The notes beneath the pieces were generated by a model. The model was not told where the DNA came from and ran no database searches. It saw only the letters and a list, made by a program, of their open reading frames with translations. The position numbers and the translations under genes were made by a program. Below, in pieces: positions 6,132 to 41,177 of a stretch of DNA of 64,000 nt. Source of the stretch: Patescibacteria group bacterium (GTDB taxonomy: Bacteria; Patescibacteriota; Patescibacteriia; Patescibacteriales; JBAZCA01); NCBI GenBank assembly GCA_041661505.1, contig JBAZUF010000004.1:4861-68860 (forward strand), written 5' to 3'. Each line of letters starts with the position of its first letter. Within the stretch, counting starts at the first letter, position 1.

Positions 6132-6139
6132 ATTTATAT

Positions 6140-6699: not shown

Positions 6700-6705
6700 T
6701 ATCAT

Positions 6706-6759: not shown

Positions 6760-6795
6760 ATGGCGGTTTTCCAGCATGGATAAAAGATAAAAACT

Positions 6796-6819
6796 GCCAC
6801 ACTAAAAGGTGGCTTTTTT
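6796..6819 (+). terminator. weak hairpin gccac/gtggc followed by T6
   Basis: 5-bp stem, 8-nt loop, and tttttt at 6814-6819. The upstream cccacc (6751-6756, the end of the mini-ORF) can pair with ggtgg (6808-6812). Confidence 0.4.
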
Positions 6820-6869
6820 AATATAGCGGGCCGTTTAAAAAGCCCGGGGAGAGAAAAAAACATAAAGAT

Positions 6870-8720: not shown

Positions 8721-8721
8721 T

Positions 8722-9624
8722 ATGGAGACCACAAAATACATCTGGCAAAACGGAAAATTGGTAAATTGGGAAGACGCTAAAATCCATGTCTTAAGCCACT
8801 CGCTCCATTACGGCTCGGGGGTTTTTGAAGGCATCCGGGTTTATGAGACGAAAAAGGGCCCGGCGATTTTTCGCCTCCCAGAGCACGTGGACCGGTTTTT
8901 TTACTCGGCTAACGCGATGAAAATGAAAATGCCCTGGACTAAGGATGAGTTTAAGGCCGCCATAATTGAAACCGTGAAAAAAAACGATTTGAAATCGGGC
9001 TATATCCGGCCCCTGGCTTTTTACGGCTACGGCGAGCTTAGGATCAGCCCGCTAAAATGCCCGGTCGAAGCGATTATCGCCGCCTGGCCCTGGGGAAAAT
9101 ATTTATCGGCCGACCCGATTAAGGTAAAAGTTCCGGACTACATAAGAATTCATCCTAAGTCATCAATAGCAGACGCGAAAATTTGCGGCCATTATGTCAA
9201 TTCAATCCTTTCCTTTTTAGAGGTGGAAGCGGCCGGCTACCACGAAGCGCTTTTACTCGACTTTGAAGGAAACATCGCCGAAGGTCCGGGAGAAAATTTT
9301 TTTCTTGTGTCCGGCGGAAAATTGGCGACCCCAAAACTGGGAAATATTTTAGCGGGAATTACCCGGCAGTCGATTATTGAGCTTGCGGGCGATTTGGGAT
9401 ACGCGGTGGAAGAAAAAACAATTACGCTTGACGCCGCGATAGCGGCGGATGAATGCTTTTTTACCGGAACGGCGGCTGAAGTAACGCCGATCGGATCTAT
9501 TAATGATTGCCTGATTGCCGGCGGAGCCTTTGGCCCGATTACCCGGCGTTTTAACGACGAGTTTATGAAAATCGTTTCCGGGGAAAATGAAAAATACGAA
9601 AAATGGTTAACATACGCGAATTAA
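8722..9624 (+). CDS. ilvE: branched-chain amino acid aminotransferase
   Basis: Class IV aminotransferase (LHYGSGVFEGIRVYE, FTGTAAEVTPI). The start was chosen at METTKYIW, 1 nt after the thrC stop. Confidence 0.9.
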   Translation: METTKYIWQNGKLVNWEDAKIHVLSHSLHYGSGVFEGIRVYETKKGPAIFRLPEHVDRFFYSANAMKMKMPWTKDEFKAAIIETVKKNDLKSGYIRPLAFYGYGELRISPLKCPVEAIIAAWPWGKYLSADPIKVKVPDYIRIHPKSSIADAKICGHYVNSILSFLEVEAAGYHEALLLDFEGNIAEGPGENFFLVSGGKLATPKLGNILAGITRQSIIELAGDLGYAVEEKTITLDAAIAADECFFTGTAAEVTPIGSINDCLIAGGAFGPITRRFNDEFMKIVSGENEKYEKWLTYAN

Positions 9625-9641
9625 TTTTGAAACTGCCTCTT

Positions 9642-11261
9642 ATGAAACTGCCATCAGAAAAATTAAAAAAGGGAATTGCCACTATGCCGCACCGGGCGCT
9701 CTTGCGGGCTGACGGCTTGCGCGGCGCGGATTTTAAAAAGCCTTTTATCGGCGTGGCTGATTCTTATAACGATATTATTCCCGGGCACATTCATCTGCGC
9801 GAGCTGTCAGAAGAGGTGAAGCGGGGAATCCGCGATGCCGGCGGCGTGCCGTTTGAGTGGGGCGTACCGGGGGTTTGCGACGGCATTGCCATGCACGTCG
9901 AAATGCGCCTGTCACTGCCTAGCCGGGAGCATATCGCCGACAATATAGAAATCATGGTGCTGTCTCATAGCCTGGACGGCTGGGTTGGCGTAACTAACTG
10001 CGACAAAATCACGCCCGGAATGCTAATGGCGGCCGGGAGGCTTAATCTTCCGGCGGCAATTTTAACCGGCGGGCCGATGAAGGCGGGAATCGTGAATGGA
10101 AAAAAAATGGACGTGATTTCCGATTTTGAGGCGGTAGGGCAAATTGAAGCCGGAAAATTATCCAAAAAAGAGGCTTTGAAAATTGAATGCGAATCCTGCC
10201 CGGGCGCCGGGAGCTGCGCCGGGCTTTTTACCGCTAATTCTATGGCGGCCATGACCGAAGTTTTAGGCATGTCAGTAACGGGCTCTGCCACAACGCTCGC
10301 CCTGGATCCGAAAAAAAAGAAACAAGCTTATGAAACCGGCCGGCGCATTGTGGAACTGGTAAAAAGGAACATTAAACCAAAAGATATAATGACCAAAAAC
10401 GCGTTTTTAAACGCAATAAGAGTGGACATGGCTATCGGCGGCTCGACCAATACGGCCCTGCATTTGCCGGCCATTGCCAAAGAATGCGGAATTAAGCTGG
10501 AGCTCGGGCTATTTGACCAGGCCTCCCGGCAAACTCCCAATATTTGCCATATTCGGCCGGCCGGGCCTTATGTTATGGAAGAACTGGATCAGGCCGGAGG
10601 CATCCCGGCGGTGTTAAATCGCCTGAAAAAATACTTAAAGCCAGCCATAACTATTAATAAAAAGAATATTTTAAAAATTGCCGAAGAAGGAAGGGTGCGG
10701 AATGAAAAAGTAATAAGGCCGCTTTCGGACCCGTTCTATAAAGAAGGCGGCATCGCGGTTTTAAAAGGGAATTTAGCGCGGACTTCGGTAGTAAAACAGA
10801 CCGCGGTCGAACCGGAGATGCTGAAAATTACCGGGCCGGCCAAAGTTTTTTCCGGCGAGCAGGCAATTTTAAAAGCCGTGGCCCGGAAAAAAATTAAAGA
10901 CGGCGACATTATCGTAATTAATTTTATGGGTCCGGCCGGCGCGCCGGGCATGCCGGAAATGCTTACGCCCACGGCCGCCATATCCGGCGCCGGATTAAAG
11001 TGCGCGCTGATTACCGACGGCCGTTTTTCCGGCGGAACTCGGGGGGCGGCTATCGGCCATATTGAACCCGAAGCTTTTCATGGCGGAGTAATCGGCATTA
11101 TAAAAGACGGCGACCTGATTGAGATTGATATTCCCAAAAGAAAATTAAATGTGGCGCTAAGCCGCGCGGAAATTAAAAAGAGGAAGAAGAATTTAAAAAT
11201 TCCTAAAAGAAAAATGACCAAGATGCTGGAAAAATACCGAAAGGATAACAAAAAAGCCTGA
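9642..11261 (+). CDS. ilvD: dihydroxy-acid dehydratase
   Basis: IlvD/Edd family (CDKITPGMLMAA, CPGAGSCAGLFTANSM, ITDGRFSGGT). The start at MKLPSEKL avoids overlap with ilvE; 9603 is an alternative. Confidence 0.9.
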   Translation: MKLPSEKLKKGIATMPHRALLRADGLRGADFKKPFIGVADSYNDIIPGHIHLRELSEEVKRGIRDAGGVPFEWGVPGVCDGIAMHVEMRLSLPSREHIADNIEIMVLSHSLDGWVGVTNCDKITPGMLMAAGRLNLPAAILTGGPMKAGIVNGKKMDVISDFEAVGQIEAGKLSKKEALKIECESCPGAGSCAGLFTANSMAAMTEVLGMSVTGSATTLALDPKKKKQAYETGRRIVELVKRNIKPKDIMTKNAFLNAIRVDMAIGGSTNTALHLPAIAKECGIKLELGLFDQASRQTPNICHIRPAGPYVMEELDQAGGIPAVLNRLKKYLKPAITINKKNILKIAEEGRVRNEKVIRPLSDPFYKEGGIAVLKGNLARTSVVKQTAVEPEMLKITGPAKVFSGEQAILKAVARKKIKDGDIIVINFMGPAGAPGMPEMLTPTAAISGAGLKCALITDGRFSGGTRGAAIGHIEPEAFHGGVIGIIKDGDLIEIDIPKRKLNVALSRAEIKKRKKNLKIPKRKMTKMLEKYRKDNKKA

Positions 11262-11297
11262 ATTATTTTTGATTATATTCTACCATGTTAAATTTAT

Positions 11298-13007
11298 ATG
11301 ATCGGAGCTGACGTATTAATAAAATCATTACTGGAAGAGGGAGTCGAGGTAATCTTCGGCTATCCGGGAGGGGTAACCATACCTTTGCATGACCGGCTGG
11401 CTTTTTATCCGAAAATAAGGCACATCCTTCCAAGAAACGAGCAGGGCGCGGCTATGGCGGCTGATGCTTATTTCCGCGTTACCGGCAAGCCGGGAGTCTG
11501 CCTTTCGACCTCCGGACCGGGCGCGACCAATTTAATTTCCGGCATCGCCAACGCTTATATGGACTCAATCGGCGTGGTGGCCATCACCTGCCAAGTTTCC
11601 ACCAAAATTTACGGCACGGACGCTTTTCAGGAAATAAAAATGACCGAGCTTACTAAAGCTATTACCAAGAAGAATTATTTTGTTAAAGACGTAAAAGACC
11701 TGCCGAAAATAATTAAAGAAGCTTTTTACCTCGCCCGCTCGGGGCGCCCCCGGCCGGTGCATATTGATTTGCCGGTGGACGTTATTAAAGCCGAAGTGAA
11801 GGAATTTTCTTATCCCCGGGACAAGGACGCGGAAGCTTTATCCGGACGGGATTATAAAGTAAGCCGGGAAACGGAAAAAGAAATTGAAAAGGCAGTTAAA
11901 TTAATCCATGAAGCGAAAAAGCCGATTGTTATCGGCGGCCATGGTATAATTTTGTCGGGCGGATCAGAAGAGTTTAAAGAATTTATAGAAGCCAATGAAC
12001 TGCCGTTTGTTACGACGCTTTTGGGAATAAGCGTTTTGCCGGATAAGCATCCTTTAAATTTCGGCATGGCCGGAATGCATGGCATGGCTTACGCCAATTT
12101 GGCGGTGCATAGCGCTGATCTTATTATCGCCCTGGGAACCAGGTTTTCCGACCGGATTACCGGGAATCTTGAGCATTACGCCAAGCGGGCTAAAGTAATC
12201 CACTTGGATATTGACGCGAGAGAAATCGGAAAAAATGTTAAGGTGGACGTTCCGCTTATAGGCGACGCCAAAAGCATATTAAGGCTAATGAACAAAAAAT
12301 TGGCCGGATATAAAAGAGAGCGCAAAAGCCGGCGCTGGGTCGATCAAATCTGCACCTTAGAAGAAAGGACCAGCCTTGATAAAATTAAAACTGAAGCCAA
12401 GCTGAAAAGAACCGGGCATATTTTTGCCTTTGAAGTGATTGAAGAAATTTCTAAACAAGCGGCCAAAAATGCAGTCGTCGTTTCGGATGTCGGGCAAAAC
12501 CAGATGTGGACGGCGCATTACTTTGACTATACTTATCCCGGCCAATTTTTGTCTTCCGGCGGCTTGGGCTGTATGGGCTACAGCCTGCCGGCGGCGGTAG
12601 GCGCGCAAACCGGCAAGCCCGGCGCCCAGGTTTGGTCAATTATGGGCGACGGGGGACTGCAGATGAATATTCAGGAGCTGGGGACGATAATGGAACAAAA
12701 ATTGCCGATAAAGATTATTGTTTTAAATAACGGGTTTTTGGGCATGGTGCGCCAATGGCAGGAATTGTTTTTTAAGAAAAATTATATGTCTACGCCGCTT
12801 TGCAATCCCGATTTTATCGAAGTCGCGAAAGCTTACGGCATCGAAGCATATAGGATTACCAAACTTGATCAGGTGGCGCCGATGATAAAGCGGGCGGCGG
12901 CGGGAAAAGAGTCGATTTTTCTTGAGTTTGCTATCGAGCCGGAGGCTAATGTTTTTCCCATGGTGCCGCCGGGGCAAGCTTTAAGAGATACGTTAATTTG
13001 TAAATAA
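11298..13007 (+). CDS. ilvB: acetolactate synthase large subunit
   Basis: ThDP enzyme (GYPGGVTIPLHD, GLGCMGYSLPAAVGA, GDGGLQMNIQEL). Confidence 0.9.
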   Translation: MIGADVLIKSLLEEGVEVIFGYPGGVTIPLHDRLAFYPKIRHILPRNEQGAAMAADAYFRVTGKPGVCLSTSGPGATNLISGIANAYMDSIGVVAITCQVSTKIYGTDAFQEIKMTELTKAITKKNYFVKDVKDLPKIIKEAFYLARSGRPRPVHIDLPVDVIKAEVKEFSYPRDKDAEALSGRDYKVSRETEKEIEKAVKLIHEAKKPIVIGGHGIILSGGSEEFKEFIEANELPFVTTLLGISVLPDKHPLNFGMAGMHGMAYANLAVHSADLIIALGTRFSDRITGNLEHYAKRAKVIHLDIDAREIGKNVKVDVPLIGDAKSILRLMNKKLAGYKRERKSRRWVDQICTLEERTSLDKIKTEAKLKRTGHIFAFEVIEEISKQAAKNAVVVSDVGQNQMWTAHYFDYTYPGQFLSSGGLGCMGYSLPAAVGAQTGKPGAQVWSIMGDGGLQMNIQELGTIMEQKLPIKIIVLNNGFLGMVRQWQELFFKKNYMSTPLCNPDFIEVAKAYGIEAYRITKLDQVAPMIKRAAAGKESIFLEFAIEPEANVFPMVPPGQALRDTLICK

Positions 13008-13107
13008 TTATTAATTTAAGTTATTGTTTTTAATTTTTCATTTTGCGAGCATTTAAAAAATTAATTACAATTAATAAACATTAAAATATTCTAATAAAAA
13101 AAATACT

Positions 13108-14157
13108 ATGGCAAAAATTGATTTTGGAGGAGTAGTAGAAGAGGTGACGACCAGGGAAGAATTTCCTTTGGAAAAGGCGCGGGAAGTGCTGGCTAATGAA
13201 GTGGTGGCCGTTATCGGCTACGGCGTCCAGGGGCCGGGGCAGGCTTTAAATTTGAAAGACAACGGCATTAAAGTAATTGTCGGACAAAGAAAGCCCGGCG
13301 CTTCCTGGGACAAGGCTTTAGCGGATGGTTTTAAACCGGGAGAAGATTTGTTTGAAATTGAAGAAGCCTTGGAAAAGGGAACGATTATTTGCTATCTTCT
13401 TTCCGACGCCGGGCAAATCACTCTTTGGCCGACTGTTAAAAAACATTTGACCAAAGGCAAGGCCCTTTATTTTTCCCACGGCTTTGGAATAACCTACAAA
13501 GACCAAACCAACATCATTCCGCCGGCTGACGTGGATGTTATTTTAGTCGCCCCAAAAGGCTCGGGGACTTCGCTCCGCCGCTTGTTTGTCGCCGGCAAAG
13601 GGCTTAACTCAAGCTACGCGATTTTCCAGGACGCTACCGGCCGGGCGGCCGATCGGGTTAGGGCTTTGGGCATTGCCGTAGGATCGGGATTTTTATTTCC
13701 CACTACGTTTGAAAAAGAAGTCTATAGCGACTTAACCGGGGAGCGCGGAGTTTTAATGGGCGCTTTGGCCGGCATTATGGAAGCCCAGTACAACCTGTTG
13801 CGGAAGATGGGGCACTCGCCGTCCGAAGCCTTTAATGAAACGGTTGAAGAAGCGACCCAGAGCCTAATCCCTTTAGTGGCGGAAAACGGGATGGATTGGA
13901 TGTATGCTAATTGCTCTACGACTGCCCAGCGCGGAGCCCTGGACTGGCGCCACGAATTTCGAAAGGCGGTGGAACCGGTTTTTGAAAAATTATACGGCCG
14001 GGTAAAAAACGGCGAGGAGTGCCAGGTGGTTTTAAAAGCCAATAGCGATCCGGATTATCGGGCAAAATTAAATAAAGAGCTGGAAGATATGCGCAATTCG
14101 GAATTATGGCAGGCCGGAGCGGCGGTTCGCGCCTTGCGCCCGGAGAGGCAAAAGTAA
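13108..14157 (+). CDS. ilvC: ketol-acid reductoisomerase
   Basis: Class I KARI (VIGYGVQGPGQALNLKDNG, SHGFGI, ERGVLMG). Confidence 0.95.
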   Translation: MAKIDFGGVVEEVTTREEFPLEKAREVLANEVVAVIGYGVQGPGQALNLKDNGIKVIVGQRKPGASWDKALADGFKPGEDLFEIEEALEKGTIICYLLSDAGQITLWPTVKKHLTKGKALYFSHGFGITYKDQTNIIPPADVDVILVAPKGSGTSLRRLFVAGKGLNSSYAIFQDATGRAADRVRALGIAVGSGFLFPTTFEKEVYSDLTGERGVLMGALAGIMEAQYNLLRKMGHSPSEAFNETVEEATQSLIPLVAENGMDWMYANCSTTAQRGALDWRHEFRKAVEPVFEKLYGRVKNGEECQVVLKANSDPDYRAKLNKELEDMRNSELWQAGAAVRALRPERQK

Positions 14158-14236
14158 TTTTTGGCCGGCCTTTAGCGAAAGCGGCAGGCGAGCTTTTTTG
14201 AAGCCTATTTTGTTTTTATAAAATAAATATATTGCT

Positions 14237-14611
14237 ATGAAACAAGTAATCAGTTCCGGCAACGCGCCAAAAGCCGTTGGGCCGTATTCGCAAGGGATAA
14301 AATCCGGAGAATTTTTATTTCTTTCGGGGCAAATTCCTCTAAGGCCGGACGGAAGCCTTGTGGAAGGCGATATCGAAGCGCAGGCCGCGCAAGTTTTAGA
14401 GAACATAAAAGCTCTTTTGTCCGAGGCCGGAATGGGCTTTCAAAACGTGGTAAAGTCCACCATGTTCTTAGCCGACCTGGCCGATTTCCAGAAAGCTAAC
14501 GAAGTTTACGCCAAGTATTTTACCGAGCCTTATCCGGCCCGGGTTACAATTCAAGTTGCCGGGATTCCTAAAGGCGCAAGGATTGAAATTGAAGTAACGG
14601 CCAAGGCCTAG
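14237..14611 (+). CDS. ridA: RidA/YjgF family enamine/imine deaminase
   Basis: APKAVGPYSQGIKSGEFLFLSGQIPL and a C-terminal RIEIEV motif. Confidence 0.85.
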   Translation: MKQVISSGNAPKAVGPYSQGIKSGEFLFLSGQIPLRPDGSLVEGDIEAQAAQVLENIKALLSEAGMGFQNVVKSTMFLADLADFQKANEVYAKYFTEPYPARVTIQVAGIPKGARIEIEVTAKA

Positions 14612-30631: not shown

Positions 30632-31420
30632 TTATCTTTTTAAGTTTACCTCAATTTTAGAAGCATTGTAAACCGCGTCTTTAATTTTTTCAAGCATGCC
30701 CGAAACGTCCTCGGACTGGAAGACATTTCTTCCGACCGAGACTCCGGCCGCGCCGACCCGGACGCAATCCCGGATTGAGGAAAGCATTATTTCTTCCGAA
30801 CCCTTGGCTCCGCCGGCGATTACTACCGGAATCGGACAGCCTTCGACCACCTCGCGAAAACTTTCCGCGTCGCCGGTAAAAGGGACTTTGACGATGTCGG
30901 CGCCAAGCTCGGCCGCTACCCGGGCGGCATGCTTAACCCGGGCGGTATCCCGGTAATGGACAATCTTTCCGTCAATCATGGTCCGCGGATACATCATGGC
31001 GAGTAAAGGCAGGCCTTCTTCCTGGCATTCTCTTGCCACGGTTCCCAAATCTTTTAACATTTCCCCTTCGTGCTCGTTTCCTAAATTAAGATGGATGGAA
31101 ACGCCCTGGGCGCCCAGTTCTTTAACTTCGCGGGCGGTAGCAATTAAAACTTTTCGAAGCGAGCCGGAAAGGCCGGTGGAAGCCGAAATATGAATAAAGA
31201 CCGGCAAATCGCCGATAACATCCTTGTATAATTTATAAATCCCTTTGTGGATAACAATGGCATCGGCTCCGCCGGCCTTAACCTTTTTGATTATTTCATC
31301 CATCTTGATGAGGCCGGGAATAGGCCCGTCGGTAACGCCATGATCCATCGGAACAATAACTGTCCGCTTGGAAATGGGGTTGATAATTTTTGACAATAGC
31401 TCACGCTTGGTGTTAGTCAT
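30632..31420 (-). CDS. 2-amino-3,7-dideoxy-D-threo-hept-6-ulosonate (ADH) synthase, MJ0400-like class I aldolase
   Basis: RTVIVPMDHGVTDGPIPGL, LLAMMYPR, AELGADIVKVPFTGD and GAAGVSVGRNVFQ closely parallel the archaeal enzyme as I remember it. Confidence 0.8.
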   Translation of the reverse strand: MTNTKRELLSKIINPISKRTVIVPMDHGVTDGPIPGLIKMDEIIKKVKAGGADAIVIHKGIYKLYKDVIGDLPVFIHISASTGLSGSLRKVLIATAREVKELGAQGVSIHLNLGNEHEGEMLKDLGTVARECQEEGLPLLAMMYPRTMIDGKIVHYRDTARVKHAARVAAELGADIVKVPFTGDAESFREVVEGCPIPVVIAGGAKGSEEIMLSSIRDCVRVGAAGVSVGRNVFQSEDVSGMLEKIKDAVYNASKIEVNLKR

Positions 31421-31469
31421 AGTATTGGCTGAAAGGGATTTACGCGTTTCGCGCGAGACCCCTAAATTT

Positions 31470-31553
31470 AAAAAAACCGGCTGTCTTTCAAGGCCGGGTT
31501 ATATTCTTAAGTAATTTATTAGTCTTTAATTTATTCTGCAAAAAGCCGGCCTT
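31470..31553 (-). promoter_or_regulatory. aromatic-operon attenuator: antiterminator 31553..31546:31497..31490 versus terminator 31497..31477 plus U7
   Basis: On the minus strand AAGGCCGG, inside the leader ORF, is the perfect complement of CCGGCCUU. The latter overlaps the terminator stem CCGGC/GCCGG, which is followed by UUUUUUU (31476..31470). Confidence 0.7.
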
Positions 31554-31609
31554 TTAATAAGGTTAAAATAGAAATAAAAGTAGCTAAACCAGATTTGGCC
31601 GAATTTCAT
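31526..31609 (-). CDS. aromatic leader peptide MKFGQIWFSYFYFYFNLIKRPAFCRIN
   Basis: 27 codons, 10 of them aromatic, with the contiguous run W-F-S-Y-F-Y-F-Y-F. It lies between the promoter and the first gene of the aromatic operon. Confidence 0.8.
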   Translation of the reverse strand: MKFGQIWFSYFYFYFNLIKRPAFCRIN

Positions 31610-31638
31610 AAAATATTGGTGATTTTTGTATATCCTAA

Positions 31639-31667
31639 ATAATACACATTTTCAAAAGACGTGTCAA
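31639..31667 (-). promoter_or_regulatory. promoter TTGACA-17-TATTAT
   Basis: On the minus strand the -35 hexamer is at 31667..31662 and the -10 hexamer at 31644..31639. Confidence 0.6.
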
Positions 31668-31698
31668 GAGCAGTAAAAATTGGTTAAAATTCGCTAAT

Positions 31699-31736
31699 AA
31701 AAAACACCTCCTGACTTTGACGAGCCAGGAGGGTGG
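31699..31736 (-). terminator. terminator after argB
   Basis: The minus strand reads CACCCUCCUG-loop-CAGGAGGUG followed by U6 (31704..31699). Confidence 0.7.
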
Positions 31737-31768
31737 AGAAATCCGGGGCACCATCTCTCCGGAGTCAG

Positions 31769-32672
31769 TTAATTGGTGATTAGCCGTCGGACCACCTCGG
31801 TTCCGATTCCCTCTTTGGTAAAGAACTCTAAAAGGACGGAATGAGGCAAGCGGCCGTCAATCAAATGCACCCTTGCCGACGCCGGAGTTTATCGCCTCCA
31901 CGGCACTCTCGATTTTTGGGCGCATGCCTCCGGTGATTACGCCTTCCTGGATTAAGCCTTCCACCTCGTCAGTCCACAGGGTGCTTATTACCGAATCTTC
32001 ATCATTTTCATCTCCAGGAACGCGCAGAAGGCCAGGAACGTCGGAGATAAATACGAGCTTCGCGGCCTTAAGGGTTTTTGCTACAAAGAACGCCACTTCA
32101 TCGGCATTCATGTTGCAGAACTGGCCACACTCGAAATATCCGAGAGGGGTGATTATAGGGATAATATTCAGTCCCAGCATCTGTTCAATTTGATTAATAT
32201 CCGCGCGTATCGGCTCGCCCACCAATCCTAAGTCTGCGGGCATTCCCGATTCGTCAAGCATTTTTTTCTTTACTGCCGTAAAAGTATCCTCACCGTACAA
32301 CTGCCAGGCTCGGCCGCCGCGTTCGTAGATTTTGCTGACCAATCTGCGATTAATCTTTTTCAGCACTTCCTGCACTACGTCCAGAGTGGGCTGGTCAGTG
32401 TAACGCAGACCGTTTACTTTCCTGGTTACTATCCCTCTCTCTTCCGAAAGCTTGTTGATTTCCGGTCCGCCCCCGTGTACGAGAATGGGTTTTATACCCA
32501 GTATCTGCAAGACTGCAAGATCTGAAAGCAGGTCGTCCTCATGTTCAGGATCTTCAATTACACTGCCGCCTGACTTGAATACCATAATTTGGTTTTTAAA
32601 AGCCTTGGCATAGGAAAGCGTTCCCAGCACTACTTGAATTTTTTCCAACCCTTCTTTAATGCGCGCGTTCAT
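31769..32672 (-). pseudogene. argB: acetylglutamate kinase with a 1-nt frameshift near the C-terminus
   Basis: The ORF 31857..32672 stops at ...SGVGKGAFD*. Skipping nt 31871 restores the canonical tail [26 protein letters not shown]..., which ends at 31769. Confidence 0.75.
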
Positions 32673-32894
32673 GATTTTCTCCCTTTTCTTGTTTTTTAGG
32701 ATTTAGGATTAGTTAAGTGTATTTTAGCCGCAGAAGGAAAGAGATTGGGCGCGAATCGGGCAAACTCCTTTCTGCTGCGGCAAATCACAAAAGATTATTA
32801 AAGAGCAGTAATGTTTAAAGCCAACAGTAATTTATATAACAAAAAATACGTATTGCAAAGGTTTTACGGCATTTGCCCGTAAAAACCGCGGGGG

Positions 32895-32923
32895 TTGAAA
32901 ATTTGGGAAAATAAAGGTAAGAT
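32895..32923 (+). promoter_or_regulatory. promoter TTGAAA-17-TAAGAT
   Basis: Hexamers read by eye upstream of pheA. Confidence 0.4.
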
Positions 32924-32970
32924 TGGATTAGCCTGGCTTCTTGCAGGCGAGTTAAATATAACTTATTTAT

Positions 32971-33552
32971 ATGAGCGCCAAAATAATTATCGGGGTTTCA
33001 GGAAACAAGGGAAGTTTTACCGAAGAGGCCGCCAAGCACTACTGCACCGAAGAAAAGATTCAAAATTATGAGCTTGCCTATCTCACTTCCGTAGAAAATG
33101 TTTTGCGCGATCTGGGTAAAGGAAAAATCGATAAAGGCGTTTTTCCGATCGAAAACTCGACCGGAGGAGTTGTTATTGAGGCGGTGGAAGCTATGGCCCG
33201 CTATATATTTGCCATCGAAAAAATGTTCGAAATTGAGATAAAGATGAATCTGCTTATGAAAAAAGGAATAAAGCCGGAAGATATAAAATCAATTACTTCG
33301 CACCAGCAGGCGCTGCGTCAATGCCGGATGTATTTAAAAAGAAAATATCCCAAAGCCGAACTCTGCGAATATCCGGATACGGCGACGGCCGCCAAGGATT
33401 TAGCCGACGGAGTATTGCCGGAAACTACCGCCGTAATCGCCCCGAAAATCTGCGCCGAATTGTATGATTTAGAATTGGCCGAAGAGGGCATCCAGGATTT
33501 AAAATTTAATTTTACGTCTTTTATCGTAGCCGCGAACGAGCATGCCTATTAA
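32971..33552 (+). CDS. pheA: prephenate dehydratase, catalytic domain only (no ACT domain)
   Basis: GNKGSFTEEAA, FPIENSTGGVV and NFTSFIV correspond to PDT motifs. At 193 aa it ends where the ACT domain would begin. Confidence 0.8.
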   Translation: MSAKIIIGVSGNKGSFTEEAAKHYCTEEKIQNYELAYLTSVENVLRDLGKGKIDKGVFPIENSTGGVVIEAVEAMARYIFAIEKMFEIEIKMNLLMKKGIKPEDIKSITSHQQALRQCRMYLKRKYPKAELCEYPDTATAAKDLADGVLPETTAVIAPKICAELYDLELAEEGIQDLKFNFTSFIVAANEHAY

Positions 33553-34570
33553 AAAAACAGTTTCCATAATCGGGTTCGGACGCTTCGGCCAGTTAACCGC
33601 AAGCGTCTTTTCGAAACGGGCGGAAGTTTTAATATATGAAAGCCGCGTTAAAAATGACCATAAACTCAAAGCGAAAAAAATCGGGGCAAAAATCGTAAAT
33701 TTAAAATTAGCGGCGAGCGCGGATTTGATAATTTTAGCAGTTCCTATTTCTGCGGCCGAAAAAGTGATTAAACAAATCGCTCCGTATGTCCGCCCCGGAT
33801 CTTTAATTGTCGACACCTGTTCAGTAAAAGCATACCCTTGCGGCTGGCTAAAAAAATATTTGCCGAAAAGCGTAGAAATCATGGGTACCCATCCGCAATT
33901 CGGCCCGGTTACGACCAAGTTTAATTTTGAAAAACAATCCTATAAGTTAAAAGGCCTGCAAATCGTTTTATGTCCGATAAGAATCGGCGGCGCGCGCCTT
34001 GGGGCGGTGAAAAATTTTTTAACCGGCTTGGAACTGAAAGTTATCATAACCACCCCGGAAGACCATGACCGCCAAAACGCTTATACTCTCGGCCTCGTCC
34101 ATTTTGTCGGGCGGGCTTTGCTCGGCGCCGGCGCCCGCGAACAGGAAATATATACTCCCGGCTATACGGACTTGCTTTCCATCCTGCCGCATACCACTTC
34201 CGATAACTGGCAATTGTTTTACGACATGCACAATTATAATCCATACGCCGAATCAGTGCGCCTTAAATTTATGGGAGCCTGCGAATCAATGGACGAGCGG
34301 ATTAGAAAAGCTAATGTAAAAGACGAACTGGGTTTCCGGCGGGAGGCGATTAATAAAATCGACTGCCGGGTTTTTAAATTATTAAAAGACCGTTTCCGGC
34401 AAGTTAGGGCGATAGGAAAAATTAAGGGTAAAAAAGGCTTGCCAATCCAGGACAAAAAAAGGGAAGAAGATATAATAAAAGATAAAGTGAAAAAATTCAA
34501 GATGGACAAGAATTTTGTTGAAGGGATTTACCATTCAATATTTAAAGAAGCTTACCGGAAACAGAAATAA
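33542..34570 (+). CDS. tyrA: prephenate dehydrogenase with a C-terminal AroQ-type chorismate mutase
   Basis: Rossmann motif IIGFGRFGQ and GTHPQFGP. The C-terminal ~85 aa (REAINKIDCRVFKLLKDRF...DKKREEDII) look like a type II chorismate mutase. Confidence 0.8.
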   Translation: MPIKKTVSIIGFGRFGQLTASVFSKRAEVLIYESRVKNDHKLKAKKIGAKIVNLKLAASADLIILAVPISAAEKVIKQIAPYVRPGSLIVDTCSVKAYPCGWLKKYLPKSVEIMGTHPQFGPVTTKFNFEKQSYKLKGLQIVLCPIRIGGARLGAVKNFLTGLELKVIITTPEDHDRQNAYTLGLVHFVGRALLGAGAREQEIYTPGYTDLLSILPHTTSDNWQLFYDMHNYNPYAESVRLKFMGACESMDERIRKANVKDELGFRREAINKIDCRVFKLLKDRFRQVRAIGKIKGKKGLPIQDKKREEDIIKDKVKKFKMDKNFVEGIYHSIFKEAYRKQK

Positions 34571-34581: not shown

Positions 34582-35304
34582 ATGAAAGAAAAACCATCGG
34601 CCTATGACGACGCCGAGATAATTTCCGTCTCTGACCAGAATTTAGAAATACATAATCGGGCTTTTCTAGACTTAAACCTCAAGGAAATTATCCCGCCTAA
34701 TGCCGTCGTCGTAAATATGGGAAGCGGAGTGGAAAAGCTCTTCGAAAAAGAATTATTGAAAGAGCGGCCGGACATTAACTTCGTTTCGGTAGATTTCTCT
34801 TTGGGGCTGGAAGACTATACGAAAGGCGAAGCAGAGAAAGAATCTAAAAATAATCAGTGGACGGTTATATCTCCTACCAGTCCCCACGACAAAACCGCGA
34901 TATACGCGAAGAAGCCTTTGGGCCAGGAATTCTTAGATGATATCGAGGAAGAAAAGCTAAGCGAGCTTACCGAGAGCGAAAAAAGGAGGCACTGGAAAAA
35001 AAGATACCAGTCGTTAAAAGAGGTTCCTGGTTCAGTCGCCATGAAAGCGCCAAAATTGGCATTGGCCGACAATTCCGCGGATACAGTTGTTGATTTCATG
35101 GGCGCCTATCAATACCTTAAAGACGACCAGGCGAGAAAAGAATATTTGGAAGAAATCCGCCGGATATTAAAGCCAGGCGGCGCGTTATATATTTACGCGG
35201 ACAGCCTCTTTCCGGAGACTCTTGCCGCCCAGATCGAGGGATTGCAAGTTGACGAAGAAAGGGTCAGGAGCGGTAAGCGGGTGTTAAAAATATCAAAAGC
35301 TTAG
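34582..35304 (+). CDS. putative class I SAM-dependent methyltransferase
   Basis: VVNMGSGVEK (motif I-like) and ILKPGGALYIY. Substrate unknown. Confidence 0.5.
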   Translation: MKEKPSAYDDAEIISVSDQNLEIHNRAFLDLNLKEIIPPNAVVVNMGSGVEKLFEKELLKERPDINFVSVDFSLGLEDYTKGEAEKESKNNQWTVISPTSPHDKTAIYAKKPLGQEFLDDIEEEKLSELTESEKRRHWKKRYQSLKEVPGSVAMKAPKLALADNSADTVVDFMGAYQYLKDDQARKEYLEEIRRILKPGGALYIYADSLFPETLAAQIEGLQVDEERVRSGKRVLKISKA

Positions 35305-35355
35305 CCAATCGAGGCGTGAAAGAAATCCCGGTTAAGATTATTATCCGCGCATTTA

Positions 35356-35384
35356 TTGACAAGTTCTAGCCTATCCGGTAATAT
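35356..35384 (+). promoter_or_regulatory. promoter TTGACA-17-TAATAT
   Basis: Perfect -35 hexamer. The ATG at 35391 is exactly 7 nt after the -10 hexamer, giving leaderless geometry. Confidence 0.6.
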
Positions 35385-35390
35385 ATAAAC

Positions 35391-35477
35391 ATGAGAAAAT
35401 TTACCGTTTCCACAATTACCATGAAGATGACCGGCATTATTATGACCGGGAATTTAATGTGGACGGTAAAGCTATAA
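35391..35477 (+). CDS. Thr/Met/Ile-rich leader peptide MRKFTVSTITMKMTGIIMTGNLMWTVKL
   Basis: 28 codons with 6 Thr, 4 internal Met and 3 Ile. The 3' end of the ORF is one arm of an antiterminator. Confidence 0.6.
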   Translation: MRKFTVSTITMKMTGIIMTGNLMWTVKL

Positions 35478-35531
35478 AGTCAAGTTAGCGAATTGAAATA
35501 AGCAGCCGTCCACACCCGGACGGCATTTTTA
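35460..35531 (+). terminator. attenuator: tggacgg(35460-35466):ccgtcca(35506-35512) versus terminator gccgtcc/ggacggc plus aTTTTT
   Basis: Terminator stem 35505-35511/35518-35524 with T tract 35525-35530. The alternative 7-bp pairing uses the W-T-V codons of the leader ORF. Confidence 0.65.
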
Positions 35532-35655
35532 ATATTTTTTCCGGCTGATTGCTGCTTTAAATATTTCGCAGGCATTATTTTATTTTTCAGCTATTATTTA
35601 TTGGAAAACAGAGTTATGTCTTACTGCGAAAAATATCAGACACAAGGAGGTTAGC

Positions 35656-35844
35656 ATGGAAGAGAATGACGGAATTGTTTGTTTTTGCCGCGTATGCGGT
35701 AAAAAAATGGTAGTTGAGTCAAGGGGCGGCAATCTTGACGCCGCCGCCCTAAAAAACATGCTTTCCTGCTCCGATGCTTGTCGCGAGCGGGAACGCGAGC
35801 AATTAATCTCCGCCCCCAAGAGCATTGTTTTTCAGGGGATATAA
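35656..35844 (+). CDS. small Zn-ribbon-like protein, 62 aa
   Basis: AAGGAGG lies 5 nt upstream of the ATG. Contains CFCRVCG...CSDAC. Confidence 0.5.
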   Translation: MEENDGIVCFCRVCGKKMVVESRGGNLDAAALKNMLSCSDACREREREQLISAPKSIVFQGI

Positions 35845-35855
35845 AAGGAGATATT

Positions 35856-36032
35856 ATGTTCCTTCAAAAGTCCTCCGTTCCGCGGGAGAAAAAAAAGGTA
35901 ACCGTTCTAAACTGCGGAATTTGCGGAAAGGAAGTCAAGCTGGTGGTCGCGAGAGACTATCCAGAAGACCTGATCCGCAAAATGGCGTCCCCGGTTTGCA
36001 AGGAATGCAAAATAGAACTGGGGATAGGATAG
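35856..36032 (+). CDS. small Zn-ribbon-like protein, 58 aa
   Basis: AAGGAG upstream. Contains CGICG...CKEC (two CxxC pairs). Confidence 0.5.
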   Translation: MFLQKSSVPREKKKVTVLNCGICGKEVKLVVARDYPEDLIRKMASPVCKECKIELGIG

Positions 36033-36167
36033 GGGAGAAAGACAAAGAAGTTTGTCTTTCTCCCCTCCTCAATTTAATTTTTATCTTTAAAGATAAGGCT
36101 TGGGTTGAGGAGGATTCTAAATACTAAAGTAGTCAGTGATCTTTTTATAAACGAGGGGGAGAAAAAA

Positions 36168-36542
36168 ATGAGGCTTATGTGGCGGGCAGTAATAGGCAGG
36201 TGTTCGACTCCGGATTGCGGGCTGGATTATGAGCTAGTACCCACGAGCTGGAAAGAAAGAGGGAAAGCAAAGAGAGGGGAATTGCCTTGCCCTGACTGTA
36301 AGTGTTACGAAGCAGTCGTTCTGGCCATTGGTAATTGTATTTCCCAAGGCGGTAGGGCAATAACTAAGGCCGGGGAGATTGTATCAACAACTCTATTGGT
36401 GCCGTGCAAGAATTGTTTAAGAGACTTTCTTTACACGGCCTCCAGCGAGGAAGATGCATTAAGAGCTAAACACGGGGCTGAAATTTGTGTCTTATGCCAG
36501 CAATTAGAAAGGGGAAAAAATGGCAAAACCTGCATGGGGTGA
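36168..36542 (+). CDS. Cys-rich hypothetical protein, 124 aa
   Basis: GAGGGGGAG upstream. Contains several CxxC-type pairs (CSTPDC, CPDCKC, CKNC, CVLC). Confidence 0.5.
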   Translation: MRLMWRAVIGRCSTPDCGLDYELVPTSWKERGKAKRGELPCPDCKCYEAVVLAIGNCISQGGRAITKAGEIVSTTLLVPCKNCLRDFLYTASSEEDALRAKHGAEICVLCQQLERGKNGKTCMG

Positions 36543-36885
36543 TCTCTATCTGAAGCCAGGTGAGGAATATCCAATCGGTCCTCAACCCGGTGATCTCCTG
36601 ATAAACCAAGGACCTGTAATTAAAGGTGTTTGTTCGAAATGCCGCCGTTGGTTTGAGGAGTCGGTGGAAAATTTCGAGATCGTGATGAAGACGAGGAGAT
36701 GCTTTACCTGCCGCGGCAGCGACTGGGGGAGTATTACTTCCCGGCTCATTTTGCACCAAGAGGTGTTGTCTGATGGTTATGTATCAGAAACACCACTTGA
36801 AGATCTTTGGGCGCTGGAGAAACCCCCAACCTCCGTACCGGCAGGAGTTAAAGATTTGGCCGATATCGGGTTCTGGCAAGATTAA
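36520..36885 (+). CDS. hypothetical protein with a CxxC...CxxC motif, 121 aa
   Basis: AAAGGGG upstream. Overlaps the previous ORF by 23 nt. Contains CSKC...CFTC. Confidence 0.5.
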   Translation: MAKPAWGDLYLKPGEEYPIGPQPGDLLINQGPVIKGVCSKCRRWFEESVENFEIVMKTRRCFTCRGSDWGSITSRLILHQEVLSDGYVSETPLEDLWALEKPPTSVPAGVKDLADIGFWQD

Positions 36886-37038: not shown

Positions 37039-37066
37039 TTGACATAAAATATAAAGCGCATAAATT
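37039..37066 (+). promoter_or_regulatory. promoter TTGACA-16-TAAATT upstream of cimA
   Basis: Perfect -35 hexamer. The implied 5' UTR is very short and has no SD. Confidence 0.45.
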
Positions 37067-37081: not shown

Positions 37082-38656
37082 ATGCCAAAAGGAGTAAAGA
37101 TTTACGATACAACCTTGCGCGACGGGACCCAGGCGGAGAATTTCAGCCTGACGGTTTCCGATAAAATAAAGATCGCCTTAAAGCTTGATGATTTAGGCCT
37201 GCATTATATTGAAGGCGGCTGGCCGGGTTCTAACCCTAAGGACGCGGCTTTTTTTAATGAAATAAAAAAGCACGAATTGAAAAACGCGGTTATTGTTGCT
37301 TTTGGCTCGACTCATCATCCGGCGGTTTTAGCCGAAGATGACTTGAACCTGAAAGCCTTGGCCGATTCCGGCGCGAAAGCCGTAACAATTTTTGGCAAAG
37401 CCTGGACCGTGCAGGTAAAAGAAGCTTTGAATATCCCGCTGGAAAAAAATTTGGAAATAATTTTAGAAAGCTTAAGAATTTTGAGGCCGCGGGTTAAAGA
37501 GCTTTTTTTTGACGCCGAGCATTTTTTTGACGGTTATAAGGCGGATTCGGAATATGCTTTGGCGGTTTTATCTAGGGCCTTAGAAGGCGGGGCTGATTGT
37601 TTGGTGTTATGCGATACTAACGGCGGAAGCATGCCAAGCGATATCCGGCAAATTATCACTAAAGTCAAAGAAAGGTTTCCTGCGGCGGAATTAGGCATCC
37701 ATGCCCATAACGATTCCGAGCTGGCGGTAGCCAACACCATGACGGCGGTTAAGCTCGGAGCAGTCCAGGTTCAGGGAACGATTAACGGGATTGGCGAACG
37801 CTGCGGAAACGCGAATTTATGCTCAATAATTCCCAATCTGATTTTAAAAAAGGGTGTTATGTGCCTGCCGAAAGAAAATTTAAAAAAATTATCGGCCGCG
37901 AGCCGCTTTGTCAGCGAATTGGCGAATTTAAATCCTAACCGCTATCAGCCGTATGTCGGACAAAGCGCTTTTGCCCATAAGGGCGGAGTGCACATTAACG
38001 CCGCCTTGAAAAATCCGATGACTTATGAGCATATTGATCCGGCTTTGGTCGGGAACATCCGGCGCATTTTAGTTTCCGATCTTTCCGGCCGCTCGGCTAT
38101 AGCGAAAAAATTGGAAGACTTTGGCATTAATTTATCCAAGACTGATCCGGCGGCCTTGAAAATTTTAAATGAAGTAAAGGAATTGGAAAACCACGGCTAT
38201 CAGTTTGAAGCGGCCGAAGCCAGTTTTGAGCTTTTGGCCAGCCGCCTGCTTGGGAAAAACAAAAATTATTTCCAGTTGGTTGATTACCGGGTGACTGACT
38301 GCAAGGCCGGAGAAGGGGAGGCGCCGTCCATCGAGGCAACAGTAAGGATTAAAGTAAAAGATCGCGAAGAGCATAGCACGGCCAAAGGCGTCGGCCCGGT
38401 TGATGCCCTAAACAATGCTTTAAGAAAGTCTTTGGAAAAAATTTATCCCCAGCTAAACGGCATGAAGCTTACGGATTATAAGGTCCGGGTATTGCCGACG
38501 AATGACGGTACGGCGGCCCGGGTAAGGGTATTAATTGAATCCTGCGACGATAAAGACTACTGGGGCACGGTCGGGGTATCAGTTGATATATTAGAGGCAA
38601 GCTGGATGGCTTTAGTCGATAGTTTTAATTACAAATTGTATAAAGAAGAAAAATAA
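37082..38656 (+). CDS. cimA: (R)-citramalate synthase
   Basis: IYDTTLRDGTQAE, the YIEGGWPGSNPKD signature of the CimA branch, HAHNDSELAVANT, and a C-terminal regulatory domain GVGPVDALNNAL...VDILEASWMAL. Confidence 0.8.
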   Translation: MPKGVKIYDTTLRDGTQAENFSLTVSDKIKIALKLDDLGLHYIEGGWPGSNPKDAAFFNEIKKHELKNAVIVAFGSTHHPAVLAEDDLNLKALADSGAKAVTIFGKAWTVQVKEALNIPLEKNLEIILESLRILRPRVKELFFDAEHFFDGYKADSEYALAVLSRALEGGADCLVLCDTNGGSMPSDIRQIITKVKERFPAAELGIHAHNDSELAVANTMTAVKLGAVQVQGTINGIGERCGNANLCSIIPNLILKKGVMCLPKENLKKLSAASRFVSELANLNPNRYQPYVGQSAFAHKGGVHINAALKNPMTYEHIDPALVGNIRRILVSDLSGRSAIAKKLEDFGINLSKTDPAALKILNEVKELENHGYQFEAAEASFELLASRLLGKNKNYFQLVDYRVTDCKAGEGEAPSIEATVRIKVKDREEHSTAKGVGPVDALNNALRKSLEKIYPQLNGMKLTDYKVRVLPTNDGTAARVRVLIESCDDKDYWGTVGVSVDILEASWMALVDSFNYKLYKEEK

Positions 38657-39190: not shown

Positions 39191-39219
39191 TTGACATTTG
39201 GTAGGCTCTTCGCTACAAT
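39191..39219 (+). promoter_or_regulatory. promoter TTGACA-17-TACAAT
   Basis: Perfect -35 hexamer and a 5/6 match at -10. The mini-ORF ATG at 39229 is 9 nt after the -10 hexamer. Confidence 0.6.
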
Positions 39220-39228
39220 GGAATCAAT

Positions 39229-39309
39229 ATGAATTTAAACCAAGTCAAAATTGGATCCCCCATTTCCGGCGGTTGTGGCGGTAGTGGCTCATGCATTGAG
39301 CAATTTTGA
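39229..39309 (+). CDS. Gly/Ser/Cys-rich leader peptide MNLNQVKIGSPISGGCGGSGSCIEQF
   Basis: 26 codons with 6 Gly, 4 Ser and 2 Cys in the block SGGCGGSGSC. The stop codon lies inside an antiterminator arm. Confidence 0.55.
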   Translation: MNLNQVKIGSPISGGCGGSGSCIEQF

Positions 39310-39398
39310 GGATGGTTTAAAAAGAAGAACATGCATAGGTTAGCAACAAAGCTAAAATAAGACACAAGCCATCCTCAAAGGGATGGCTTTAGCGTTTT
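39307..39398 (+). terminator. attenuator: tgaggatgg(39307-39315):ccatcctca(39369-39377) versus terminator agccatcc/ggatggct plus a T-rich tail
   Basis: The 9-bp and 8-bp perfect stems share nt 39369-39374. The tail ttagcgtttt is at 39389-39398. Confidence 0.6.
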
Positions 39399-39448
39399 AG
39401 GGGTATAATGCAGTGAACGCTCTTTTTGAAAATTTGGGAGGAATAGCC

Positions 39449-39856
39449 ATGAATCAATTTGATTTTACGGAAGTCGTTGCCGAGGGCGCGGAAAGCGGGA
39501 ATCAAAACGGTCTAATCCGCGGACTCTGCATAAGAGGAGAACATCGCGGAGAGATCATGTGTTTCAGCTTTCCTCAGCCTGTGCAGGGCAAGTTTTTTTG
39601 GACCGTAGAACGAAGTGGCGAGAAGATTTTGTCCTCGGAAAAATGGGAGATTATCCGGAAGGGAGGTGATGAAATGAAAGACTGTTGTCGTGAGACGACG
39701 GACAGTGCGGGTAAAAATAAACATGTTGCTTGCCTGCACTGCGGGGAGAGATGGGAAAAATTCGGCGATAAATGGCGTAAAGAGATACCCCCGGCAAATT
39801 TTAAGCTGGAGGGTGAAATTTACGTCTACGAAGACCACCCCGCCGTACCATCCTGA
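39449..39856 (+). CDS. Cys-rich hypothetical protein, 135 aa
   Basis: GGGAGG lies 8 nt upstream of the ATG. Contains DCC...CLHCG. Sits between the attenuator and cysK. Confidence 0.5.
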   Translation: MNQFDFTEVVAEGAESGNQNGLIRGLCIRGEHRGEIMCFSFPQPVQGKFFWTVERSGEKILSSEKWEIIRKGGDEMKDCCRETTDSAGKNKHVACLHCGERWEKFGDKWRKEIPPANFKLEGEIYVYEDHPAVPS

Positions 39857-40958: not shown

Positions 40959-41132
40959 ATGTCCCAAAAAAACGAAAGGAGCGTTATTATCGGAACTTGT
41001 TCTATATGCGGATTCCCGATAATTGAAGGCGACAAGCCTGACAAACACTCAAACCCGACTACTTGCCGAATAAATATTCTTTCGGAGCGTCGACGGGATG
41101 TTGAGAAATTGTCATGCAAGGGGCAGAAATAA
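40959..41132 (+). CDS. small Zn-ribbon-like protein, 57 aa
   Basis: AAAGGAGG upstream. Contains CSICG...C...C. Too short to appear in the ORF track. Confidence 0.45.
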   Translation: MSQKNERSVIIGTCSICGFPIIEGDKPDKHSNPTTCRINILSERRRDVEKLSCKGQK

Positions 41133-41177
41133 AAAAATTTCAAACAGGACGGCATAGGAAGCCGCCGAGGAGGGAGT

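Follow-up and report, generated by a model that had tools for sequence, protein, structure and literature searches.

The window, the whole 64,000-nucleotide stretch of Patescibacteria contig JBAZUF010000004.1 that we analysed, carries between its tyrA and cimA genes a unit made up of a promoter, a short open reading frame (ORF), alternative RNA pairing regions and an intrinsic terminator, followed by four small Cys-rich ORFs. The short ORF is rich in Thr, Ile and Met codons, and we consider it likely that the unit belongs to the ribosome-mediated (leader-peptide) class of transcription attenuators, as known from trp, thr and ilv. A first-pass annotation of the same DNA, made by a model from the letters alone, had read it in this way, and its reading is supported by conservation of the ORF, by compensatory changes in the RNA helices and by four further attenuators of the same design in the window. 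The sequence elements were observed directly and are listed in Table 1, as were the amino-acid bias, the conservation and covariation, and the parallel attenuators described below.

The promoter lies just ahead of ATG 35391, where the annotation had placed it, and scores 10/12 in our promoter scan. The ATG begins 6 nt past the -10 hexamer, and because its A is the seventh base after that hexamer the transcript probably starts at or beside this A, which would make the mRNA leaderless. The leader peptide contains 6 Thr, 4 internal Met and 3 Ile, exactly the counts that the annotation had given. Together these residues make up 13 of the 27 that follow the start Met, compared with 14.8% in the proteins of the window (binomial P = 4e-5, calculated post hoc).

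Downstream of the start codon, four regions of the transcript can form three alternative helices (1:2, 2:3 and 3:4). Region 2 holds TGTGGACGG (35458-35466), a perfect 9-nt complement of CCGTCCACA (35506-35514); the pairing of TGGACGG (35460-35466) with CCGTCCA (35506-35512) noted in the first-pass annotation is correct, and the true complement is longer. Taken as a whole the 2:3 pairing spans 9-10 bp, joining 35458-35467 with 35505-35514. When the 110 nt upstream were shuffled 5000 times with dinucleotides preserved, a 9-nt complement to the terminator arm turned up just 8 times. The competing terminator is likewise where it had been described, with GCCGTCC (35505-35511), a 6-nt loop and GGACGGC (35518-35524), and an A precedes the T5 that ends the element at 35530. 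It folds at -14.6 kcal/mol (z = -5.3).

The 148-nt leader as a whole folds at -42.1 kcal/mol (z = -4.85) into a long hairpin formed by the first and last parts of the ORF and, after it, the terminator; the 1:2 helix is present in this minimum-free-energy fold. When the 5' part is blocked (first 30-60 nt, mimicking a stalled ribosome), every homolog described below refolds into the antiterminator. A search of the whole window with Rfam at gathering thresholds returned three tRNAs only, and neither Thr_leader (RF00506) nor any other curated leader, riboswitch or T-box family was matched; at E up to 10 on 35250-35700 nothing relevant appeared above noise. The likeness to thr-operon leaders proposed in the annotation holds at the level of function and does not extend to an Rfam match.

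Table 1. Features of the leader unit, the genes behind it, and the further leaders and biosynthetic genes of the window. Coordinates are positions in the window; aa, amino acids.
Feature	Position	Strand	Description
Sigma-70-type promoter	35356-35384	+	TTGACA 35356-35361, 17-nt spacer, TAATAT 35379-35384
Leader ORF	35391-35477	+	28 codons, MRKFTVSTITMKMTGIIMTGNLMWTVKL
Sensing run	35403-35447	+	Codons 5-19, TVSTITMKMTGIIMT; Thr, Ile or Met at 11/15 codons
Near-invariant core	35427-35450	+	ATGACCGGCATTATTATGACCGGG (MTGIIMTG); holds direct repeat of ATGACCGG
Region 1	35403-35414	+	ACCGTTTCCACA; predicted 5' arm of anti-antiterminator/pause hairpin; covers codons 5-8 of leader
Region 2	35458-35467	+	TGTGGACGGT; alternative partners region 1 or region 3
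Region 3	35505-35514	+	GCCGTCCACA; terminator 5' arm and loop start; predicted antiterminator partner of region 2
Region 4	35518-35530	+	GGACGGC followed by A and U5; intrinsic terminator, 3' arm with U-tract
Untranslated spacer	35531-35655	+	Terminator to ORF1; ends in Shine-Dalgarno AAGGAGG
ORF1	35656-35844	+	62 aa, Cys-rich (CxCxxC...CxxxC); predicted first read-through-dependent gene
ORF2	35856-36032	+	58 aa, CxxC...CxxC typical of zinc ribbon
Hairpin after ORF2	36031-36066	+	16 bp; -27.2 kcal/mol, z = -5.8
ORF3	36168-36542	+	124 aa, Cys-rich
ORF4	36520-36885	+	121 aa, Cys-rich
cimA	37082-38656	+	Citramalate synthase; TIGR00977, 742.9 bits, cut-off 450
Leu leader (candidate)	1146-1276		MKIKSLKLNLLLLLPLKRAAILC; before leuA (1339)
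Val/Ile/Leu leader	6103-6290		MLNLARKIVLIVVEVVVMVMTPFRVCRVRVRA; ORF at 6140; after leuB; TTGACA-17-TATAAT promoter, 12/12
Ile/Leu leader	6671-6822		MITRPQNILLVNLILPT; ORF at 6706; promoter and terminator; directly upstream of threonine synthase fusion gene, ilvE, ilvD, ilvB, ilvC
Gly/Ser/Cys leader	39191-39400		MNLNQVKIGSPISGGCGGSGSCIEQF; ORF at 39229; before small Cys-rich ORF and cysK
leu/ilv gene cluster	1339-14611		leuA, fused leuCD, leuB, threonine synthase with C-terminal LeuA allosteric domain, ilvE, ilvD, ilvB, ilvC, ridA
asd, aspartate kinase		-	
pheA, tyrA	32971-34570		
Cysteine synthase	39871		
serA	41461		

Homologous leaders and the history of the locus

Four homologous copies of the leader occur in related Patescibacteria metagenome contigs (L089, L094, L095 and L101), all of them downstream of tyrA. 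Contig L089, whose TyrA is 73% identical to that of the window, has the leader MTRINATTIKTIMMMTGIIMTGVLIAGGENKLEVRS, and a scan of metagenome contigs with the shared core GACCGGNATTATTATGACCGG yielded the other three. The remaining matches of that scan were unrelated coding sequence, several reading ...IMTGIIMTGR. An origin of the leader from the gene with this stretch (read by eye as mlaE; L092, L096, L097 and L100), to which a 21-nt GACCGGNATTATTATGACCGG identity points, was considered and rejected, the identity being judged a coincidence of a common motif.

The annotation had stated that its reading would fall if the mini-ORF were not conserved; the ORF, its ATG and its Thr/Ile/Met run are kept in all four contigs. 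Conservation and covariation were taken from an alignment of six sequences (A3), and contigs L001-L006, which are from the same species and 99% identical, were of little use for covariation. The start ATG is invariant in the alignment. Upstream of it, L089 and L094 share the -35 hexamer of the window. Behind the -10 hexamer the window and these two contigs have the block ATATAAACATG, in place of which L095 has ATATAAGCATG. The ATG follows the -10 hexamer by 6 nt in the window, L089, L094 and L095, and follows a -10-like hexamer by 10 nt in L101.

Indels within the Thr/Ile/Met part (6 nt and 3 nt) are in frame; those in the linker are of 5, 10, 4 and 1 nt. Substitutions in the sensing part mostly swap Thr, Ile and Met among themselves, or lead to a neighbouring codon, and the homologs are enriched in these three residues as well (14-17 of 34-35 residues; P = 1e-5 to 2e-4). 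Across all copies the core at 35427-35450 has a single synonymous change only (GGC to GGA). In the window lineage a single nucleotide is deleted immediately ahead of region 2, which alters the C-terminal residues and moves the stop codon, and the tail of the leader peptide therefore appears not to be constrained.

The antiterminator (alignment columns 76-84 with 141-149) comprises 9 pairs in which 54 of 54 cells are paired, while slid controls are only 31-63% paired. Two of its pairs covary, one as UA/CG/UG, with the G-U intermediate in L101, and one as AU/GC. The terminator helix is 100% paired across the homologs and has one compensatory pair (UA to CG), and one of the covarying antiterminator columns covaries with the terminator 3' arm too (U-A vs C-G). 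This covariation supports the predicted switch without being statistically decisive, since the homologs are few and come from two or three sub-lineages. A covariance model based on the six leaders of the family places every copy at 146-173 bits, and the rest of the 213 kb gives no match above 30 bits.

The closest relative found, contig L007 (CimA 78% and TyrA 79% identical), is syntenic with the window and has directly before cimA a promoter, an ORF MIITAKNIITTIIIPQMRDEIVLA (8668-8742) and a terminator CCCCGCATAATGCGGGG with T6 (8762-8790). This leader is collinear with that of the window (z ~6.7) and shares with it the neighbourhood of tyrA, leader and cimA, the promoter-to-ATG geometry and the 1:2/2:3/3:4 logic, and the two are probably orthologous. 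They differ in that the L007 leader encodes 8 Ile and 3 Thr, has just one internal Met, which lies outside the Ile/Thr run, lacks the MTGIIMTG core, and abuts cimA where the window has small ORFs. The family covariance model scores it marginally (23.6 bits, E ~0.02), and because Gly/Ser/Cys leaders score equally this value speaks for a common architecture more than for homology.

In L089 the leader is followed by ORF1', ORF2', a LeuA-dimer fragment of cimA that stands alone, and thrC. The fragment (13910-14326, 138 aa) is a cimA remnant without the catalytic domain and lies before a thrC of a different type. Because this more distant contig has the leader-ORF1-ORF2 order, the small ORFs appear to be long-standing behind the leader rather than a recent insertion. 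The most economical history starts from an old unit that joined the leader, one or more small ORFs and cimA; L007 would since have lost the small ORFs, and the window lineage would have gained ORF3-ORF4 and also a separate promoter for cimA. Only an outgroup could fix the direction in which such changes ran.

The first-pass annotation had offered two accounts of the locus, either a genuine starvation-controlled module of small proteins or a cassette inserted between an ancestral Ile/Thr attenuator and cimA. Both are partly supported. The arrangement in L007 is in line with an ancestral link of attenuator and cimA, and recent insertion of the small ORFs is contradicted by the order in L089, with ORF3 and ORF4 as possible later arrivals. 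The comparison of synteny that the annotation had suggested gave a divided answer, in that an Ile/Thr leader stands directly upstream of cimA in L007, whereas in L089 ORF1-ORF2 intervene before the cimA remnant and thrC.

Among more distant loci, those found through TyrA in L090, L102 and L103 have pheA, tyrA and an aminotransferase and no cimA or Thr/Ile/Met leader. A CimA scan of the Genome Taxonomy Database (GTDB) species genomes gave 80 loci at 53-61% identity and no leader homologs. These are mostly from Desulfobacterota and Nitrospirota, with cimA usually directly behind aspartate kinase and without a leader, and because most GTDB cimA loci lack one the leader appears to be lineage-specific. 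The nearest relatives of CimA outside the clade are from Syntrophobacteraceae and other Thermodesulfobacteriota (64-69% identity), which suggests that cimA reached the Patescibacteria lineage by horizontal transfer. The stretch between tyrA and the leader also differs by relative: the window has a methyltransferase (34582-35304), L007 has ORFs of 91, 155 and 80 aa (7180-8527), and L094 has on its minus strand (1044-2584) a nucleotidyltransferase/HEPN toxin-antitoxin-like pair, so identified by eye, and small Cys-rich ORFs.

Genes behind the leader, further attenuators and the host

The four small Cys-rich ORFs named in the annotation (starting at 35656, 35856, 36168 and 36520) and, after them, cimA with a promoter-like site of its own are as it described, and TIGR00977 confirms cimA. 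The spacer ahead of ORF1 has matching conserved blocks in L089, L094, L095 and L101, and the promoter scan found no promoter-like site between the terminator and ORF1. Because no such site precedes ORF1 and its Shine-Dalgarno sequence is strong, ORF1 and ORF2 would depend on read-through. ORF1 is 44% identical to L089 13078-13374 and ORF2 40% identical to L089 13462-13695, with the Cys positions kept in both. For ORF1, a word-indexed search and a full phmmer search against 1.84 billion representatives returned nothing beyond the protein itself, a fragment of 45 aa and a single unrelated repeat protein. Pfam has no match to ORF1, ORF3 or ORF4, and its zinc-finger hint for ORF2 stays below threshold. 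No homolog of ORF3 or ORF4 was found in L007 or L089, and both may be additions in the window's own lineage.

After the hairpin that follows ORF2 a T-rich stretch begins only ~7 nt later, with no adjacent U-tract; the hairpin is possibly a weak terminator or a stabiliser. The cimA gene lies 1.5 kb behind the leader as a possible distal target of read-through, and it has no Shine-Dalgarno sequence in either the window or L007.

Unrelated small ORFs replace the first ORF between conserved flanks in L094/L095 and in L101. Seen across the contigs, the first ORF behind the Thr/Ile/Met leader takes the form of three unrelated alleles between conserved blocks, a 5' untranslated region with Shine-Dalgarno sequence on one side and a 3' hairpin on the other (window 35531-36100; L089 12805-13470; L095 and L101 on the minus strand). 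Palindromic repeat-like hairpins are inserted behind the terminator in L089. Dotted through the amino-acid gene cluster of the window (35656-36885, 39413-39856 and ~40960-41135) are small Cys-rich ORFs that carry CxxC-type motifs and have good Shine-Dalgarno sequences, none with a Pfam family.

The Thr/Ile/Met element is one of at least five putative attenuators of like layout in this genome. The other four, for Leu, Val/Ile/Leu, Ile/Leu and Gly/Ser/Cys, each have a terminator and a complementary upstream segment, and the fold of each switches once the 5' part is blocked. Three of the four match their operons (Leu with leuA, Ile/Leu with thrC-ilv, Gly/Ser/Cys with cysK). In the Leu leader AACGGGCGGC is complementary to the terminator arm GCCGCCCG, the terminator being GCCGCCC...GGTGGAC with T6; no clear promoter stands directly ahead of its ATG at 1146. 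In the Val/Ile/Leu leader GTTTGCCGGG is complementary to the arm of the terminator CCCGGCaaacaaGCCGGG, which has T7, and some 380 nt without a clear gene follow until the next promoter. Near the Ile/Leu leader, a 10-codon ORF starting MITR at ~6323 may be a remnant duplicate. The Gly/Ser/Cys leader, in which TTGAGGATGG is complementary to the terminator arm CCATCCTCAA, is kept upstream of cysteine synthase in L007 (10441-10615) and L089 (16567-16772), and a small ORF stands between leader and cysteine synthase in the window and L007.

When the window was scanned blind for units of promoter, short ORF and terminator in which the ATG stands 4-10 nt past the -10 hexamer, the elements at 6140, 6706 and 35391 were the sole matches with a strong promoter. 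No Phe/Tyr leader was seen by eye upstream of pheA (window 31410-32980). In L104, a distant Patescibacterium (TyrA 54% identical), 6070-9160 holds tandem units of promoter, leader, terminator, Shine-Dalgarno sequence and small ORF. Its leaders are rich in Ile, in Leu, in mixed hydrophobic residues, or in Phe/Tyr/Trp, the aromatic leader MKNIIRKNNWFFFYFYGYFIKPGFCDYKKK lying upstream of two small ORFs and pheA-tyrA.

The host is judged to be a bacterium of the candidate phyla radiation because proteins identical to ORF1 occur in contigs labelled Patescibacteria group bacterium by NCBI and because the upstream TyrA-chorismate mutase fusion has relatives in Moran-, Falkow- and Parcubacteria. Besides the biosynthetic genes of Table 1 there are shikimate-pathway genes on the minus strand, seen in the syntenic L089, and serC and serB follow serA, by synteny with L007. 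The threonine synthase (NF006050, 318.5 bits) is fused to its C-terminal LeuA allosteric/dimerisation domain in a gene at 6870-8720. The usual description of this radiation credits its members with a small biosynthetic capacity and few known regulators, and the contig shows otherwise: genes for Leu, Ilv, aromatic, Thr, Ser and Cys biosynthesis are apparently under classical ribosome-sensing attenuators, with leader ORFs that are probably at the 5' end of the transcript.

Proposed mechanism, alternatives and comparison with known systems

From the elements at this locus we infer where transcription starts, that the ORF is translated, which amino acids are limiting and how far read-through extends. 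Transcription would begin at or beside the A of ATG 35391, and the leader ORF would be translated from a leaderless mRNA. With charged tRNA-Thr, tRNA-Ile and probably tRNA-Met plentiful, the ribosome would traverse codons 5-19 and either reach the stop codon and cover region 2, or leave region 1 to re-pair with region 2 behind it; the terminator (3:4 and U-tract) would then form and transcription would stop near 35530. If any of these charged tRNAs were scarce, the ribosome would stall in the TVSTITMKMTGIIMT run, where, judging from footprint geometry, it would cover or separate region 1 and leave region 2 free. Region 2 would then pair with region 3 as the antiterminator, and the polymerase would continue into ORF1-ORF2 and possibly into ORF3-ORF4 and cimA. 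On the best reading of the sequence the attenuator would control ORF1-ORF2, possibly with read-through toward cimA.

Several points weigh against this account. The leader's start codon lacks a Shine-Dalgarno sequence, and where transcription starts is taken from promoter geometry. The regulatory residues are interspersed and form no clean run, leaders rich in Met are unusual, and the synonymous sites of the MTGIIMTG core are more conserved than codon sensing alone explains. The 1:2 helix is imperfect (79% paired across homologs) and shifts register between lineages, and L089-type copies already show the antiterminator in their unconstrained minimum-free-energy fold. With six distinct sequences from two or three sub-lineages there are few independent covariation events, and the observed covariation score was reached by 3 of 500 shuffles, a figure that is not a probability. 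The genes immediately behind the element are orphans, and cimA is preceded by a promoter-like site of its own (37039-37066).

An alternative is that the ~140-nt terminated transcript is mainly a trans-acting small or dual-function RNA, like rnTrpL from the Sinorhizobium trp attenuator, with attenuation secondary or absent. The unit has the compact look of such a gene, with a promoter, a strongly folded 140-nt RNA and a terminator, its core is conserved at synonymous sites too, and we count in favour of this role the precedent for attenuator RNAs and peptides acting in trans that two papers provide (PMC7968998, PMC7298713). However, no Rfam family matches the RNA, the local fold round the conserved core varies between lineages, and conservation falls on the features of an attenuator: the ATG, indels that keep the frame, the bias in amino acids and the covariation of the antiterminator. 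A small RNA is unlikely as the main product, although it would be compatible with attenuation and not exclusive of it. A ligand or an RNA-binding protein (riboswitch, TRAP- or PyrR-type) might also drive the 1:2/2:3/3:4 switch through the core and its ATGACCGG repeat, the ORF being incidental, since three-hairpin logic needs no ribosome in itself and both core and repeat are conserved beyond coding needs. We give this only a slim chance: it does not predict an invariant start codon with in-frame Thr/Ile/Met indels, the ATG keeps one distance from the -10 hexamer in the window, L089, L094 and L095 and a longer one in L101, the amino-acid bias survives many substitutions, no known riboswitch or T-box model matched, and no candidate gene for a binding protein was identified nearby.

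The ORF could instead encode a functional small hydrophobic peptide (membrane or type I toxin-like), the RNA structures governing its own translation or stability and not the downstream genes. That the segment TIMMMTGIIMTGVLIAGG resembles a transmembrane helix and that the MTGIIMTG core is invariant would fit such a peptide, as would the recurrence of MTGIIMTG in the ...IMTGIIMTGR coding stretch of unrelated contigs, recognised as an MlaE-type permease segment by eye. A weak antisense promoter-like match on the minus strand (35463-35436), the only one of its kind, could be added, but at 9/12 it is at chance level (22 found vs 11 expected in shuffles). Conservation of the full-length peptide fails at the C-terminal third, where the reading frame shifts from one lineage to another, and outside the core residues change freely yet stay Thr, Ile or Met. 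A peptide function, which we regard as very improbable, would also leave unexplained the sibling runs of Leu, Val and Gly/Ser/Cys, most of them beside genes of the matching pathway. As for a chance ORF beside the terminator of an unrelated transcript, with no regulatory role, ORFs of 20-30 codons are indeed abundant throughout the window, and promoter- and terminator-like matches are overall only ~1.5 to 2 times as frequent as in shuffles. This last explanation is already contradicted by the comparative data, and we give it next to no credence: the promoter-to-terminator unit is conserved with covariation in four other contigs, the family model finds every copy and nothing comparable, and the shuffle tests of fold (z) and of the 9-nt complement speak against it.

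Attenuation by a leader peptide is a well-known kind of switch, and the added interest of this example is the phylum, the sensing run with Met and the cargo of orphan small proteins, which raises the question why such proteins stand between attenuators and enzymes. It can be suggested, as a tentative and rather doubtful generalisation, that Patescibacteria use amino-acid-specific leaderless attenuators to switch on interchangeable orphan small proteins in starvation, and not only biosynthetic enzymes. We suggest interchangeable cargo because the slot behind the Thr/Ile/Met leader holds three unrelated ORFs, a small Cys-rich ORF follows the Gly/Ser/Cys leader, and L104 has tandem units; many of these small proteins are Cys-rich and zinc-ribbon-like. 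If they were starvation effectors, for instance in scavenging or host interaction, they would be a new class of attenuator cargo. For uncultured organisms the attenuator makes testable predictions, namely metatranscriptome reads that start at 35391 and stop at 35530. In the literature searched we found no paper that connects leader peptides or transcription attenuation with Patescibacteria or the candidate phyla radiation, nor a relevant one that connects citramalate synthase with a leader peptide.

In thrL and in the trp, his, leu and ilv leaders, behind a short ORF enriched in codons for the end product (Thr and Ile for thrL) come anti-antiterminator, antiterminator and terminator hairpins that exclude one another, and when the ribosome stalls on the regulatory codons it is the antiterminator that forms. 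The element described here resembles thrL (Rfam RF00506) and these classical attenuators in its codon-enriched short ORF and its three exclusive hairpins. It differs from them in having no sequence or covariance-model similarity to them and no Shine-Dalgarno sequence, its start codon apparently standing at the transcript's 5' end. Met codons within the run (MMM in L089-type copies) and interspersed regulatory residues also set it apart from classical leaders, and the genes first downstream are orphan small Cys-rich ORFs in a Patescibacterium rather than thrABC.

Leaderless leader peptides have been described in Corynebacterium glutamicum, where IlvL (MTIIRLVVVTARRLP) precedes ilvBNC (PMC11857589), and in Deinococcus deserti, with 14 predicted (PMC4007540). 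These leaders start at or one base from the transcription start, have no ribosome-binding site and control amino-acid biosynthesis genes (PMC11857589; PMC4007540). The window element is like them in its three-hairpin attenuator and its apparent 5'-terminal AUG, as the predicted start site would place it. It differs from them in its phylum, in having no sequence relationship with them, in its predicted sensing of Thr/Ile/Met and in placing small orphan ORFs before cimA, and it would extend leaderless attenuation beyond Actinobacteria and Deinococcus.

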